Shown: in pieces, positions 11,521 to 32,315 of the stretch
Position numbering within the stretch: position 1 is the stretch's first letter
Layout: each line of letters starts with the position of its first letter
Sequence record: PQ738613
Length of the DNA: 34,674 nucleotides
Reading direction: 5' to 3' (one strand)
DNA from: Escherichia phage PhiKM
Made by a program: the position numbers and the translations under genes
The notes under the pieces: model-generated
Database searches by the model: none
Seen by the model: the letters and a program-made list of their open reading frames with translations, nothing else
What the model was told of the DNA's origin: nothing

Positions 11521-14386
11521 ATGTCGGGACAGTTTTCAGTCGGCGTTGTTATCGGCGGGATGATTGGCAGCACATTCCGTTCTGCAATGAGCGGTACCCG
11601 CCGTGCGCTTGATTCCCTGAGCGATACCTCACGCCGCCTGCAGGAACGTCAGAACGCTTTAACCCGTGCAACAGAACGTTATGGTCAACTGGGTTCTTCC
11701 CGGATGCAGCATCTCAACAGCGAGCTGCTGCGGGTAAGCCGCACCATGGAGCAAATTGAGCGCCAGCAGCGCCGTCTGTCAGCGGCATCCGCTACCAGTG
11801 ATGCGCTGAAAGCTAACCGCATGGCGCTGTATGGTCAGGGGATTGAAGCGTATGGCATGGCACAGACTGTTTATCATACGGTTTCCCCTGCCGTTCAGCA
11901 GTCCATGTCTTTTCAGGACAAAATGATTGATATGTCGATCACCGCAAAATATGACAATAAAACGCGGGATGCACTTGCCGGACAGATAAAAGGCTGGGCG
12001 CTTAAATACAATCAGTATCAGGATGAGCTGCAGGAGGCGATGGGTTCACTCATCAGCGACAATATTGATAATGTGTCAGATATCGGTTTTCTGATGCCGG
12101 ATATTGCCCGCGCGGCAACGGCAACACGCACGTCTGCTCAGGACTGGGCAAAAGTGGCCGCAGTCTGGCAAAACTCCCTGAAAGGCGCGGCCAGAGATTT
12201 TGGTGCCGTTCAGAATATTATGGCTTATGCCGGTGACCAGGGGTCATTTGAAATCCCGGATCAGGTCAAGTGGATGCAGTCCCTGGCCCCAATGATGGCG
12301 GGTATTGCCAGTGGAAAAGAGGCTGTTGCTGAAATCGGGGCCAGTCTCCAGATAGCAAAAATCGGTGCAGGTTCCACCGACGAAGCAGCCAATAATTTTA
12401 AAAACTTTCTTACCAAAATTTTTGCCCGCGATACTCAGAAACAGTTTGCTGATCTGGGTATTGATTTGCAGGGATCTATTGCGAGTTATAAAGCTGCGGG
12501 GATCTCTCCGATTGAAGGGATGTTGAGTGTTATAGAACGTTACCTCAATGCCAAAAGCCCCGAAGCGCTGGCCGGCTTCAAATCAGCCATGAAAATAAAG
12601 AATGATACGGCAAGAGATGAGGCACTTCAGGCTCTGGCGAAAAACTTTGGTCTGGGCGATATGTTCGCGGATATGCAGGTCATGGCATTTATCCGCCCGA
12701 TGCTGGCCAACATGGACAGATATCGAGAGATCCGTGCCGGTGCTCTCAGGGCTGCGGATAACGATTTGCTTGCCAGTGCTTATGATCAGCGGCTGAAATC
12801 TCCCCTTGAAGCCACTAAAACACTTATGGTCAGCAGTCGCGATCTGGCAATTACGCTGGGCGATCAATTAGCTCCATCTTTTATTTCTCTGACTCAGGAC
12901 TTGCTCCCACTCATTCAGGGGACAAAACACTGGGTGGCGACTCACCCGCAATTTGTCAGTGGGGCTTTTAAGCTCATCAGTGCGCTCCTTGCGATTAAGA
13001 TAGCGACTGTTGGTCTCAAACTGGGGCTGAATCTCCTTATTTCCCCCTTTGTGAACGTCTGGAAAACTGCTGTTTTACTCCGGACCAACTGGCATCGACT
13101 GACTACCGCACTCGGAGAAGGTGGCAAATTACGCTGGCTTGTCACTGGATTCAGCCGACTGACCAGCGGAGGACTGAAACTCAGCAAAGTTCTGGCGGGC
13201 AGCCTCGTTCGCGGTTTTATGAGCGCTGCACGTGCCGTTCTCTGGATTGGGCGAGCGCTGATGATGAATCCCATCGGTCTCGTTATCACCGCTGTCGCGG
13301 CAGCAGCTTACCTTATCTACCGCAACTGGGGGGCAGTCAGTGGCTGGTTTAAACAGCGCTGGGCTGACATTCAGGAAGCCTTTAACGGCGGTATCGCGGG
13401 AACTGGTAAGCTGCTGATTAACTGGTCGCCGGCANNNNNNNNNNNNNNNNNNNNNNNNNNNNNNNNNNNNNNNNNNNNNNNNNNNNNNNNNNNNNNNNNN
13501 NNNNNNNNNNNNNNNNNNNNNNNNNNNNNNNNNNTGGGCTGACATTCAGGAAGCCTTTAACGGCGGTATCGCGGGAACTGGTAAGCTGCTGATTAACTGG
13601 TCGCCGGCAGGTCTGCTCTATAAAGCCTTTGCAGCTGCGCTGAAATATCTTGGTGTTGATCTGCCGGCAAAGTTTACCGACTTCGGTGGCCATCTTGTCG
13701 ATGGTCTGATTAACGGTATCAAAAACAAATGGGAGTCGCTCAAATCCAGTGTAACCGGAATGGGCGACAGCATCAGTGGCTGGTTCAGCGAAAAGCTGGG
13801 CATTCATTCGCCGAGCCGCGTGTTTATGGGCTTTGGTGACAATATCGCGCAGGGGGCCGCCATTGGCCTGCAGCGGACCACTCCGCTTGCAGCTCTGGCC
13901 GGGCAGCGAATGGCCAGTGAACTGCTCCCCAGAATGCCCGTGAGCATTCAGGGGCCAGAAATACGGGATAACACTTCAGGTGTTCGCTTCAGTATGCCGT
14001 TGCCCGATATCAATGGGTTTATGTCGTCTGCTAAAAATGCGATCGGAGCCGTAATCAATAGTTTGTCTTCCATGCCCGCTATTCCGCTCTCCACCCGGGC
14101 ATCGATTTTACCAGGGCAACGTCTGGCAAATGAGATGACACCGGATGTTCCCCGTATCCCCTCGCCTGAAATCCTGGCTGCCGGATATTCAGGCCGTGGT
14201 GCAGCTGCAACCGGCGGTGGAACGTCTGGTGGTATCCAGGTCAGCTTTAATCCTCAGTTTTTCCTCAATGGCAGGGAAACCACAGCGCCTGCAGGACTGA
14301 CTGGTGCCCTGAATATGAGTCTGCATGAGCTGGAAAAAATGCTGGAGCGTCTGCTGGCTCAGAAACAACGTAAGGAGTACCGCTGA
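11521..14386 (+). CDS. tail tape measure protein (interrupted in this assembly by a 100-N gap and a 75-bp duplicated flank)
   Basis: Frame open 11521 to gap and from gap to 14386; peptide before the gap (WADIQEAFNGGIAGTGKLLINWSPA) is repeated verbatim after it; collapsing gap plus duplicate restores one continuous ORF of about 896 aa. Confidence 0.8.
13360..13609. repeat. 75-bp exact direct duplication flanking the gap (13360-13434 and 13535-13609), most likely overlapping contig ends
   Basis: Sequence tgggctgacattcaggaagcctttaacggcggtatcgcgggaactggtaagctgctgattaactggtcgccggca occurs immediately before and after the N run. Confidence 0.9.
13435..13534. other. assembly gap (run of 100 N)
   Basis: Directly visible; exactly 100 N, the conventional unknown-size scaffold gap. 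Confidence 0.98.
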
Positions 14387-20575: not shown

Positions 20576-20651
<76 letters not shown>

Positions 20652-29791: not shown

Positions 29792-29877
29792 TACTGACCC
29801 GGACACAAAGGACAGGTGGTTGATCTGGATGCTTTCAGAAAACATCGCCAGTGACATAGTGGAAGTTGTTTGGTTTA

Positions 29878-29908
29878 CCGGAAAGCATTGTGCTTTCCGG
29901 TTTTGTTT
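29878..29908 (+). terminator. rho-independent terminator between convergent repressor and methyltransferase genes
   Basis: CCGGAAAGCA (29878-29887) ttg TGCTTTCCGG (29891-29900) followed by TTTTGTTT. Confidence 0.55.
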
Positions 29909-30672
29909 CAGAAGTTGCAGATTAGCAGTTCACGGCGCGGCGTGGGTTTACCCGCCAGACTGTAGTTGATATTCACTGTCTGTATGTTCAGTCCAGTGAA
30001 CACCTCGCGCATCTGCGGGATGTCGTTCACCGAAATTATCATTTTTCCTCTGATGCACCGGGCCAGCTCTGCCAGCCGCGAGTAGTTCCCTTCAGGAAAA
30101 TCCACACCATAGCCTTCCGTACCCAGGTACGGTGGGTCGCAGTAGAACAGCGTGTGCGGACGATCATAACGCTCAATGCACTGTTGCCAGTCCATGTGTT
30201 CTATGACTGTTCTGGAAAGCCGCAGGTGTGCCGCTGACAGTTCTTCTTCAATACGTAGCAGGTTGAAGCGTGGCGGGGATGTGGTGGAGGTACCGAAGCT
30301 GTGCTCTGCCACCTTGCCGCCAAACGCCTGCTTCTGAAGGTAGTAGAACCGTGCCGCACGCTGGATATCCGTCAGTGTTTCTTCCGGGGTGATCTGCAGC
30401 CATTTGTAGATCTGACGGCTGACCAGCGCCCATTTGAACTGGCGGACAAATTCTTCCAGGTGATGCTTTACCACCCGGTACAGATTCACCAGTTCACCGT
30501 TGATATCATTGATGACTTCGATCTTGCCGGGTGTCTTAAGAAAATAGAGCGCTGCTGCCCCACAAAACGGCTCCACATAACATTCATGCGCCGGAAACAG
30601 CGGCAGAATGTGTTTTGCAAGGCGGCGTTTGCCACCAATCCACGGCACGATGGGTAATGTCTGCATTTTCAT
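29908..30672 (-). CDS. DNA adenine methyltransferase (Dam / D12-class N6-adenine MTase family)
   Basis: DPPY motif (FYCDPPYLGTEGYG), N-terminal PIVPWIGGKRRL and EPFCGAAALYF motifs; start at 30672 (MKMQTLP) preferred; track ORF extends to 30762 through palindromic non-coding-looking DNA. Confidence 0.85.
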   Translation of the reverse strand: MKMQTLPIVPWIGGKRRLAKHILPLFPAHECYVEPFCGAAALYFLKTPGKIEVINDINGELVNLYRVVKHHLEEFVRQFKWALVSRQIYKWLQITPEETLTDIQRAARFYYLQKQAFGGKVAEHSFGTSTTSPPRFNLLRIEEELSAAHLRLSRTVIEHMDWQQCIERYDRPHTLFYCDPPYLGTEGYGVDFPEGNYSRLAELARCIRGKMIISVNDIPQMREVFTGLNIQTVNINYSLAGKPTPRRELLICNF

Positions 30673-30720
30673 AATCTGCAAGCCTTTTACAATTATTAAA
30701 AAATATGGCAGTCTGGTCAG

Positions 30721-30732
30721 GTCTCGCGAGAC
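30721..30732. promoter_or_regulatory. 12-bp perfect palindrome GTCTCGCGAGAC about 50 bp upstream of methyltransferase start
   Basis: Directly read. Confidence 0.35.
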
Positions 30733-30776
30733 TGACTGAACCTTGGTCGGCTCACAGCGCATTCCTGTGGGGCGAT

Positions 30777-30815
30777 GACCAGCCCGGCTTTCGGGTGCCG
30801 GGCTGGTCGTTCTTT
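30777..30815. terminator. GC-rich hairpin, 11-bp stem
   Basis: GACCAGCCCGG (30777-30787) ctttcgggtg CCGGGCTGGTC (30798-30808) followed on + strand by GTTCTTTC. Confidence 0.4.
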
Positions 30816-30862
30816 CATGATGCGGCAGGGATGGCGGGATTTCTGTTAATGTGGTTTAGGGA

Positions 30863-31078
30863 TTATCCGGGGCGATTTTCTGACCTTATCCGGTCCAGGG
30901 CATAAGTAATACCTTCTGCAAAAACAGAAGTATCAAACTGCTTTTGTATTCCCTGAAAATGAAAAGCGGCACGACAGACACTCAGTTCTCCGCGGTATAA
31001 CCGGATAATATCTTCCAGAACATTGTTCACTGCTTCAGCACGGCGCTGATGTTCTGTTAACGTTAATCGGGGATTCAT
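30863..31078 (-). CDS. hypothetical 71-aa protein
   Basis: Strong SD AAGGAG 6 nt upstream of ATG 31078; alpha-helical-looking product; no recognisable family. Confidence 0.5.
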   Translation of the reverse strand: MNPRLTLTEHQRRAEAVNNVLEDIIRLYRGELSVCRAAFHFQGIQKQFDTSVFAEGITYALDRIRSENRPG

Positions 31079-31079
31079 G

Positions 31080-31481
31080 ATGCACTCCTTAAATGATGAT
31101 TTTTATGTACTCACCGGCAAAATATTCTGCCGATTACTGAACACGCATCCGGCACCTCAGGTTTTGATTTATTCTGGTTTTTTCGATATCCCGGACCAGG
31201 TTGATCACGACCAGAAAAAGTGCCGGTGTTTTATTGATACGCTGATATGGCTTCGGGATAACAGCTATATTCGTTACTCTCAGTTGCTGGCTGTGGGAGC
31301 GGCTGATGTCGTCCTCACGGAAAAAACGCTCTGTCTGCTCAATGCCATGCCGACCTTTCTGCAGCCCCGGCCCGTACCATTTAAAGAGTCACTTCTGGAT
31401 GCAGTAAAAACCGGTGAAAATGCAGTCATCGCTGAATGCGTATCCCGGATTATGCGTTACGTGTTTAATGAACGTAAGTGA
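31080..31481 (+). CDS. hypothetical 133-aa protein (uncertain; fills gap between two minus-strand genes)
   Basis: ORF 31077..31481 with ATG 31080 preceded by GGGGA (6-nt spacer); overlaps the divergent start of the 71-aa gene and the 3-prime end of the NTPase gene. Confidence 0.3.
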   Translation: MHSLNDDFYVLTGKIFCRLLNTHPAPQVLIYSGFFDIPDQVDHDQKKCRCFIDTLIWLRDNSYIRYSQLLAVGAADVVLTEKTLCLLNAMPTFLQPRPVPFKESLLDAVKTGENAVIAECVSRIMRYVFNERK

Positions 31482-32185
31482 GGTTTATCCGCTGTCTGCA
31501 TAATCCCGATAGCCAGTGCGAGGGGAAGTAATTCCGGGGAAACTCTTTCAAACAGCGATGCCCATTCTCCTCTCGCCATCACTCTGTCCAGCCCGCCCTC
31601 CAGTTGCATTTCAGCAATCTTCCTGATTTCCCGGAACAACGCCGCTTTGATCTCTTCATGCTCAGCTTTATTTTCCGGTGTCAGAAGGTATTCGTCGAAG
31701 AACCGGGGAGGCTGGTTAATCGGGATGTGTTCCTGTTTGCCGTACTTCGGGGACGAACAACATTCTGTTGACTGACCAGTGAGTTTACGTAACTCCTTCA
31801 TGAGCAGCTCCTGATCGTAAACTGTCATCAGTGCCGCAATGGTGGCATGCAGTGCATCGGGCAGTATCCAGGGTTGCCGGCCCGTGGGGCATATAACATC
31901 CAGCAGCTCATTCGTCCGACAGATACGCTCCTCGCCGTATGACAACAGGCCCTGTCCCGTGTATTCCTCCAGCCTGATCACTGTGCCAGCCCGTGGTTTC
32001 TGCCATGTGCTCAGATCATCCCCACTCATACGGCGCTCACCGTCCACGTCTGCGGCGTCGACAATGACGCTGTTTCCGAATTCCTGTTTCACCACTTCCT
32101 CTATTCGCGCCAGTACGTAACTTTTACCGCTGCCCACAGGACCGGACACGGTGACAGTGATGACCGGATTCAGTGTCTGCGTCAT
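31457..32185 (-). CDS. P-loop NTPase-domain protein of unknown function
   Basis: 242-aa ORF with SD GAGGAG 8 nt upstream; Walker A GPVGSGKS near N-terminus; C-terminal 140 aa without recognisable family. Confidence 0.6.
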   Translation of the reverse strand: MTQTLNPVITVTVSGPVGSGKSYVLARIEEVVKQEFGNSVIVDAADVDGERRMSGDDLSTWQKPRAGTVIRLEEYTGQGLLSYGEERICRTNELLDVICPTGRQPWILPDALHATIAALMTVYDQELLMKELRKLTGQSTECCSSPKYGKQEHIPINQPPRFFDEYLLTPENKAEHEEIKAALFREIRKIAEMQLEGGLDRVMARGEWASLFERVSPELLPLALAIGIMQTADKPHLRSLNT

Positions 32186-32315
32186 ATCGTATTCTCCTCT
32201 GTGAATAATTCATCGTTTATCCTGCACATCCCGTATCCCCGGCTCTCTTAACGCGCTTTAAAATCCTTCGCGCCCTGTATTTGTGATGCTGTCTCCACCA
32301 GATAAGGAGACACAC

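Follow-up and report, generated by a model that had tools for sequence, protein, structure and literature searches.

The gpA-gpQ (old/tin) hotspot of P2-like phages is a reservoir of defense systems (Rousset et al. 2022, PMC9122126). Here we describe a locus of Escherichia phage PhiKM (sequence record PQ738613; “the window” is the whole stretch of 34,674 nucleotides that was analyzed) that resembles it. Between the repressor gene and the lysis genes lie a gene for a Dam-family methyltransferase and three small genes encoding proteins of 242, 134, and 71 amino acids (aa), all three of which carry only “hypothetical” annotation. Like the P2 hotspot, this slot is a fixed site between backbone genes, with fast cargo swapping and partly low-GC cargo, and a pair made of a winged-helix gene and a small gene is physically shared between the two. 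Unlike the P2 hotspot, it is found in a BcepMu-type transposable phage, flanked by the immunity repressor on one side and the late promoter on the other; its cargo has no match to a validated defense system, and most of its genes are oriented against the lysogenic direction.

Three further comparisons concern single parts of the locus. P1 Dam and T4 Dam are phage orphan Dam methyltransferases, and com-mom of Mu is a late-expressed modification operon. Like the P1 and T4 enzymes, the window methyltransferase is of the D12 class, phage-borne, without a nuclease partner, and apparently silent in the lysogen; unlike these precedents, it occurs in a host already having Dam, it is not homologous to Mom, and we infer the timing of its expression. 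P2 (C/Cox) and 186 (CI/Apl) have face-to-face promoter switches, and the small genes of the window likewise encode, divergently, a protein with a DNA-binding fold and a small partner. On the other hand, the start codons of this pair overlap in the tetranucleotide CATG, the module is dispensable and mobile, and it is not related in sequence to C, Cox, CI, or Apl. T4 internal proteins and polymorphic conflict proteins combine a constant N-terminus with a variable C-terminus. The family of the 242-aa protein does the same at one hyperplastic locus, where a constant N-terminal mini-domain of ~75 aa, called N75 here, is followed by shuffled short C-terminal modules. N75 differs from the T4 proteins in being a P-loop mini-domain and not a short targeting peptide.

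The locus is a phage accessory hotspot with uncharacterized cargo, and its unusual features are an interleaved antisense cassette and a mosaic, N75-headed protein family. As a site of functions in phage-host or phage-phage conflict it is a good candidate, though an unproven one. Our favored reading, to which we give a probability of about 0.4 as a whole, is that the slot holds three separable units and that a leftward unit of the lytic cycle, encoding conflict functions, would be gated by the antisense winged-helix gene.

The slot and its methyltransferase

The slot has the following features (window coordinates; + is rightward, − leftward; bp, base pairs):

29877-29901, + strand: intrinsic terminator with an 11-bp stem and a T tail, 3' of the repressor gene; left border of the slot, on which the Dam gene converges
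29908-30672, − strand: Dam-family (D12 class) N6-adenine DNA methyltransferase, 254 aa (WP_000783854.1; PF02086, TIGR00571)
30673-30862, − strand: Dam leader region, conserved in Dam-bearing relatives; inverted repeat CTCACAG/CTGTGGG and a hairpin at 30777-30808
30863-31078, − strand: gene for a 71-aa helical protein (s71; phrog_4490), with a strong Shine-Dalgarno (SD) sequence, AAGGAG
31077-31481, + strand: gene for a 134-aa winged-helix protein (fam134; phrog_2266) with a C-terminal helical hairpin; two in-frame ATGs (31077, 31080)
31457-32185, − strand: gene for the 242-aa protein (phrog_3787), with GPVGSGKS at residues 15-22
31952-32185, − strand: N75, the ~75-aa Walker A mini-domain of the 242-aa protein (exhaustive phmmer search, alignment, predicted local distance difference test [pLDDT], and profile against Protein Data Bank [PDB] sequences)
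31766-31951, − strand: middle module, residues ~79-140 of the same protein (sequence comparison)
31457-31705, − strand: Cdom, its C-terminal helical domain of ~75 aa, residues ~161-242 (sequence comparison)

The window is 100% identical to an ST131 E. coli prophage (JJ1887, EC958, and many others) whose insertion adjoins ycaL. It is a circular permutation in which the right end of the prophage, past the tail-fiber genes, is fused to the left end at 20576|20577; the left end starts TGATTAGACTTGAG... and abuts ycaL in JJ1887, and the window contains no host DNA. To judge from gene order, this is a BcepMu-type transposable prophage and does not have the Mu arrangement. Its early genes (Ner, an IclR-like regulator, DUF3102, a DDE transposase, an ExeA-like B protein, Gam, and Mor) run leftward, and the repressor runs rightward, as do the lysis, head, and tail genes; this is the BcepMu arrangement. 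With this inverted early region the junction of repressor and lysis genes is normal in such a phage, and the finding is the stretch that separates the two.

Relatives were collected with the holin as anchor. We fetched 64 loci, taking a single genome for each species, together with 29 viral contigs, and made gene maps from Ner to the holin (loci are cited by L numbers); the defense profiles were those of PADLOC-DB v2.0.0, the domain profiles those of Pfam and NCBIfam, and the phage families those of PHROG. The stretch from the repressor to the late promoter had 57 gene architectures in 74 related loci and ranged in length from 0.85 to 5.3 kb. Backbone genes were kept on both sides from the Enterobacterales to Burkholderia, Pandoraea, Bordetella, and the Pasteurellaceae, and BcepMu has unrelated genes at the same position.

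Two sub-slots could be distinguished. The first, to the right of the repressor and co-directional with it, holds varied genes in the relatives, including a pair encoding NA37 and a membrane protein, the PADLOC candidate PDC-S42 (1e-28), and genes whose products have weak RexB-, KwaA-, and 2TM-like matches. In L016, L056, and L064 a pair 3' of the repressor encodes a 335-aa protein, which is probably the NA37 (YejK-like) match (9e-86), and a ~400-aa protein whose C-terminal part appears, by eye, to contain hydrophobic segments. The second sub-slot, between Dam and the holin, is either empty or occupied by a 188-aa gene (phrog_5663), by an N75-family gene, or by the three-gene cassette; Dam adjoins the holin promoter directly, with the cassette absent, in L016, L018, L023, L025, and others. 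The slot is a true variable accessory slot and not one system.

These comparisons bear on the original prediction, made from the sequence of the window. The four open reading frames (ORFs) on which it was based are all present, the only correction being that the rightward one starts at 31077, the first of its two in-frame ATGs, and not at the second (31080), and its idea of a variable cargo position was borne out. It had described the stretch as having no counterpart in the canonical Mu backbone; the variable stretch is real, but repressor and lysis genes are adjacent as a matter of course in phages of the BcepMu type. It had also proposed an AT-rich, acquired moron. The dip is real but modest: GC content at 31081-31260 is 42.8% versus 55.0% for the window, in the 3rd percentile of 180-nucleotide (nt) windows. 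By composition the 71-aa and 134-aa genes are foreign (44-46%), whereas Dam and the 242-aa gene (53%) are like the backbone. Lastly, Dam had been counted as part of a cargo island, and this did not hold. Most enterobacterial relatives carry it, with its conserved leader; Pectobacterium, several Brenneria, Lonsdalea, the Burkholderiales, and BcepMu do not. Dam is a semi-conserved resident of the slot and a neighbor of the small-gene cassette, and not pure cargo.

The enzyme itself belongs to the Dam family. It scored 102 bits against PF02086 (6e-29, cut-off 22) and 116.6 bits against TIGR00571 (cut-off 114.85), and its translation has the catalytic motif FYCDPPY (DPPY) and an S-adenosylmethionine-binding EPFCGAAA (FxGxG-type). 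Its PADLOC matches were to methyltransferase models only (MTase_II, 6e-112). It is an orphan (solitary) methyltransferase: the repressor and 71-aa genes flank it, and neither PADLOC nor the ORF map placed a cognate restriction endonuclease beside it.

A protein identical to the window Dam is present in EC958, where the whole locus is identical. In that strain, prophage Phi2 carries M.EcoMIV, an orphan methyltransferase with the PF02086 domain and a predicted Dam homologue (Forde et al., PMC4659465). Its transcription in EC958 lysogens was significantly lower than that of the host dam gene by reverse transcription PCR (RT-PCR); its methylation motif could not be assigned, it has no homologue of >65% identity with a known site, and its type IIA label in REBASE is putative only (PMC4659465). 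The window Dam is very probably M.EcoMIV, since strain and Pfam domain agree, both are prophage methyltransferases, and the order of locus tags is compatible. Low transcription of Dam in the lysogen argues against a lysogen-expressed defense role for the leftward genes.

The interleaved three-gene cassette

The small genes are interleaved at both junctions. The start codons of the 71-aa and 134-aa genes overlap in CATG (31076-31079), with the SD of each inside the first codons of the other, and the last 25 nt of the 134-aa gene are shared with the 3' end of the 242-aa gene. The 134-aa gene is thus antisense within a leftward string of genes, in the same direction as the repressor. We found this layout in four divergent lineages (HMM, hidden Markov model):

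E. coli (window): 242 aa, 134 aa, and 71 aa; 3' overlap 25 nt; start overlap CATG (2 nt)
Serratia: 89 aa (Cdom, no N75), 139 aa (53% identity), and 73 aa (29% identity); 3' overlap 37 nt; start overlap CATG (2 nt)
L119/L120: 258 aa, 147 aa (HMM 6e-35), and 69 aa (matching the Serratia protein at E 9e-6); 3' overlap 4 nt; start overlap CATG (2 nt)
L121/L122: 224 aa, 168 aa (HMM 1e-27), and an uncalled 66-aa ORF; 3' overlap 54 nt; start overlap 8 nt

The gene order was the same in all four, a leftward gene ending in Cdom, a rightward, antisense winged-helix gene, and a leftward small gene. Cdom was matched at 5e-8 and 2e-6 in the L119/L120 and L121/L122 lineages, respectively; the 66-aa ORF of the latter is s71-like by eye only and gave no phmmer match. 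N75 proteins lacking Cdom (L012, L042, L047, L050, and L101-L110) never occurred with the other two genes. Since the cassette recurs, since Serratia has it without N75, and since N75-only loci lack its partners, the conserved unit is the Cdom gene with the antisense winged-helix gene and the small gene; N75 is an add-on and Dam a neighbor. The unit originally proposed, a P-loop NTPase with small partners, is replaced by this linkage.

Purifying selection was seen wherever divergent copies permitted a test, which supports the genes being coding. The 71-aa gene had a ratio of nonsynonymous to synonymous substitution rates (dN/dS) of 0.24-0.41, the N-domain of the 242-aa protein one of 0.22, and the P2-type winged-helix gene one of 0.06. 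Natural deletions are informative as well. In L096 (5740-5800) and L099 the winged-helix gene has been lost save for its first ~52 nt, which hold the SD of the 71-aa gene. What remains, all intact on one strand, is a 247-aa gene followed after 53 nt by the 71-aa gene and then by Dam, a layout in which the leftward genes are co-oriented with a short gap.

The 134-aa protein has a helix-(strand)-helix-helix-hairpin topology with significant structural matches to the winged-helix fold. Some databases label this family DUF2513; we did not retain the label, as none of the 36 members reached the gathering score (best E 0.073, one member). The gene lies in the direction of the repressor in every BcepMu-type locus, and its relatives occur in very different settings. 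In three P2-like phages it stands in the gpA-gpQ hotspot beside varied cargo, back-to-back with a 63-64-aa gene and with the same CATG start overlap. The 63-aa partner is treated as analogous to the 71-aa protein, homology having received an hhalign probability of 0.1%. In Vibrio (L084-L086) the winged-helix gene is a single-gene superintegron cassette, in a common Mu-like phage (L116/L117) it lies antisense between a G-type morphogenesis gene and a scaffold gene, and in Pseudomonas tohonis (L081-L083) a relative adjoins unannotated 328-aa and 767-aa genes. Photorhabdus and Brenneria relatives carry a paralogous winged-helix type 3' of the repressor and co-directional with it. A second, paralogous gene of the Photorhabdus type (126 aa) is found between the 71-aa gene and Dam, in the direction of the repressor, in L007/L008 (7393-7773) and L097. 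Across these contexts the winged-helix gene behaves as an autonomous mobile unit.

One possibility is that the cassette is a system for anti-phage defense or superinfection exclusion expressed in the lysogen, in which the winged-helix protein senses or binds incoming DNA and the P-loop and small proteins are its partners. The slot is hypervariable, the winged-helix/small-gene pair resides in the P2 hotspot, the winged-helix gene is a Vibrio integron cassette whose orientation here, that of the repressor, fits lysogenic expression, and the slots of relatives hold a PADLOC candidate family and weak RexB- and KwaA-like matches. This is a serious rival, most of all for the winged-helix gene, given the hotspot and integron settings in which it occurs, though on the whole an unlikely one. 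The defense system matches that the original prediction led us to look for in PADLOC did not appear: there were none for the 71-aa and 134-aa proteins, and for the 242-aa protein only sub-threshold matches of P-loop type (E >= 0.003). Profile searches of the three proteins gave no Pfam family match and no enzymatic or effector domain, such as a nuclease, transmembrane, or NADase domain (Pfam/NCBIfam). The proteins are also very small (71-242 aa; 89 aa in Serratia), and the leftward genes share a strand with Dam, which is nearly silent in the lysogen. We considered whether the cassette might be the system of “three genes without predicted domain” of Rousset et al. In the portion of the supplementary cloned sequences available to us (PMC9122126), neither the P2-type gene, represented by four conserved strings of 14-38 nt, nor DUF2513 nor the WP accessions found a match, and this identity was set aside. 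A literature search on the protein accessions, DUF2513, and BcepMu-like phages returned nothing relevant.

Alternatively, the winged-helix and 71-aa proteins could form a bistable switch of the CI/Cro or C/Cox type that times Dam and the late genes, a developmental module that takes no part in conflict. The two genes lie back-to-back and their starts overlap, which implies promoters that face each other, and genes so close must have overlapping transcripts. The position between the immunity region and the late promoter would suit such a role, as would the winged-helix fold and a weak HTH_psq hint in the 71-aa protein (Pfam, E 0.083). However, many close relatives do without the cassette (L016, L018, L023, L025, and others), which makes it dispensable for development, an equivalent pair stands beside varied cargo in unrelated P2-like phages, and the winged-helix gene alone is an integron cassette. 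We regard this reading as improbable.

Small, tightly linked, overlapping genes and an antisense layout that recalls RNA-controlled modules could also indicate a toxin-antitoxin or addiction module that stabilizes the prophage, and the prophage is indeed prevalent in a clonal lineage (636 of 5,426 complete E. coli genomes, mostly of pandemic ST131). Against this, no toxin or antitoxin family was matched in Pfam, PHROG, PADLOC, or NCBIfam; the genes are divergent or convergent and not co-directional, as a type II module requires; natural variants lose the winged-helix gene cleanly with their neighbors intact; and members of the pair are found separately. Such a module is highly improbable.

The N75 mini-domain

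A word-indexed homologue search with the 242-aa protein returned E. coli relatives only (247, 182, and 141 aa), and missed the members of the family outside this species. The family became visible because an exhaustive phmmer search was used, in which wide conservation was limited to residues 1-75. N75 heads proteins of 73 to 364 aa, the remainder of which is a mosaic of short modules in differing combinations. The middle module, for example, is missing from the 182-aa variants and is found as the C-terminus of other family members; Cdom is found in two other N75-family proteins and, alone, as the 89-aa Serratia protein. The N75-family gene constantly takes the first leftward position beside the late promoter, and in L110 it ends 30 nt before Dam. 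Stand-alone N75-like ORFs were also seen in high-GC viral contigs (L111-L115). Searched with tblastn against deposited phage genomes, the 242-aa and 71-aa proteins had no match.

The conserved order within N75 is a strand, Walker A, a helix, a strand, and then E-R and W-x-x-P. G20, K21, and W61 are invariant among 37 members and E50 is nearly so. Walker A (GxxxxGK[ST]) is present, with Asn in place of Ser in three members. A Walker-B-like Asp (position 43, VIVDAAD) is kept only in the enterobacterial group, with D, E, C, S, or K elsewhere, and the alignment thus has no Walker B acidic residue conserved across the family. Residues 10-70 were modeled with a pLDDT of ~95.

The original prediction had named the 242-aa protein a P-loop NTPase. 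Of this claim the Walker A motif stands. The full P-loop core domain of ~150 aa or more found no support in family score or fold, the family being conserved over ~75 aa; all P-loop family matches in Pfam and NCBIfam were below the curated cut-offs and spanned 30-45 residues, the best Pfam match reaching 16.5 bits against a cut-off of 27 over residues 11-49. When the N75 profile was compared with PDB sequences, its matches to ABC ATPases, cytidylate kinase, and PilT were confined to the strand-P-loop-helix(-strand) element (best E-value 9e-5), and the designed “phosphate-loop protein” 6c2u was among the top matches. Like the heads of ABC-type ATPases and 6c2u, N75 has a strand-Walker A-helix with an invariant Lys, and its best sequence matches are ABC ATPases; unlike them, it has only ~75 conserved residues, with no signature motif, no Walker B, no further core strands, and no fold match. 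Homology to a housekeeping or known enzyme, which would have counted against the original prediction, was sought for the 242-aa protein and none was found. The protein thus has a genuine Walker A element in a mini-domain and is not a demonstrable NTPase.

It could still be argued that the 242-aa protein is a working kinase or ATPase and that the cassette carries out a nucleotide-dependent enzymatic task. The invariant Walker A Lys, the profile matches to the beta1-P-loop-alpha1 element, and the confidently modeled N-domain are in its favor. However, the conserved part is short and the rest mosaic, the family matches are partial and below cut-off, the sole Walker-B-like residue varies outside the enterobacterial group, three members lack the Ser of the motif, and N75 is missing altogether from the Serratia cassette. 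This makes an enzymatic role very unlikely. It could also be speculated that N75 is a natural minimal P-loop domain derived from the segment of an ABC-type ATPase head that runs from Walker A to the Q-loop. It would then serve BcepMu-type phages as a constant handle that binds nucleotide or phosphate, or as a decoy for ABC-type defense ATPases, onto which short inhibitor modules are shuffled; together with Cdom, the winged-helix protein, and the 71-aa protein it would form a modular counter-defense locus gated by the antisense gene. We judge this proposal, taken in full, decidedly unlikely.

Control signals and a lytic-cycle reading

The control signals outside the coding regions are as follows:

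30777-30808, + strand: GC-rich hairpin upstream of Dam, its arms pairing perfectly over 12 bp and followed by a T-rich tail
32186-32315, divergent: control region between the 242-aa gene and the holin ATG (32316)
32194-32199, − strand: strong SD of the 242-aa gene
32219-32226, − strand: leftward conserved motif ATCCTGCA, which accompanies N75/Cdom genes, Serratia included
32248-32261: near-palindromic box TTAACGCGCTTTAA, candidate late-activator site
32286-32291, + strand: −10-like hexamer ATGCTG, after a 24-nt spacer from the box
32290-32312, + strand: hairpin GTCTCC-N9-GGAGAC, which buries the holin SD

The box, its spacer, the ATGCTG hexamer, and the hairpin are kept together in 24 BcepMu-type loci, Burkholderiales included. 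The center of the box is 32 nt from the hexamer, that is, near −43.5. Mor/C-type activators of Mu have a similar box-center spacing (~−43.5), and this phage encodes a Mor homologue. Ten divergent versions of the holin-SD hairpin all folded, as single sequences, into a sequestering hairpin with arms that differ and remain complementary, which suggests translational control of the first late gene. The hairpin at 30777-30808 likewise has changed yet complementary arms in L016, L029, L040, L043, and L052, as judged by eye. It is probably a rightward terminator, one that would keep transcription arriving from the repressor side from reading into the late operon. No terminator was found 3' of the 134-aa gene.

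Under the favored reading, the slot would comprise an orphan methyltransferase with its own leader, kept silent in the lysogen; the three-gene cassette in its fixed interleaved layout; and the Walker A mini-domain with the middle module, fused onto the Cdom gene in E. coli. The leftward genes (242-aa, 71-aa, and Dam) would make up a lytic-cycle transcription unit starting beside the palindromic late-activator box, about 60 nt from which the leftward gene begins. The winged-helix gene would be read in the direction of the repressor, its promoter lying within the 71-aa gene. Its antisense transcription, and probably also its DNA-binding product, would shut the leftward unit in the lysogen by interference between face-to-face promoters, of the kind seen at the P2 Pe/Pc and 186 pR/pL switches. 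Induction would lift the block, Dam would then modify replicating phage DNA, and the small, non-enzymatic proteins would act as putative binders in conflict with the host or rival elements. We infer the leftward lytic unit, its gating by the winged-helix gene, and the conflict-binder role alike. This reading is consistent with the antisense placement of the winged-helix gene among lytic genes in the Mu-like head module, with the pair in the P2 defense hotspot, and with PDC-S42 in the slots of relatives. For the small proteins, counter-defense seems more likely than defense, because an orphan methyltransferase is nearby, because the leftward Dam is silent in the lysogen, and because the proteins are small and mosaic. 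The regulatory, enzymatic, and addiction readings are less likely.

Several observations weigh against this reading. A sigma-70 consensus scan of the stretch gave no convincing promoter, whether for the leftward unit or for the winged-helix gene. Symmetric leftward activation from the late box was considered and not adopted, since the ATGCAG-like hexamer on that side lies 4-6 nt nearer the box than the rightward one; with this difference in spacing, shared activation is possible and uncertain. A perfect 10-bp palindrome, TTAACGTTAA (31055-31064), lies inside the 71-aa gene, 13-22 nt upstream of the winged-helix start, and was a candidate operator; it is not conserved in the Serratia cassette, and a shared operator was rejected. 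The winged-helix gene stands alone in Vibrio integrons, in Photorhabdus, and in the Mu-like head module, and it therefore has a function independent of its neighbors in the slot. Lastly, the RT-PCR result covers the Dam gene only, and the equation of Dam with M.EcoMIV is a match of strain, prophage, and domain and not of accessions.

Elsewhere in the window, the tape-measure gene shows a repeat-length polymorphism (13435-13534), with 100 nt in the window versus ~186 nt in JJ1887 and flanking repeats that are 92-94% identical.

These data add to the P2/P4 hotspots a comparable variable slot, one carried by transposable phages of the Enterobacterales and Burkholderiales; such accessory slots have been productive for new defense and counter-defense functions. 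The interleaved layout, with its start overlap and 3' overlap, is kept at ~30% identity and offers a compact, testable case of regulation by gene overlap, and the N75 family is relevant to work on minimal P-loop folds. The value of the locus is that of a well-delimited, easily cloned candidate whose function is unproven.

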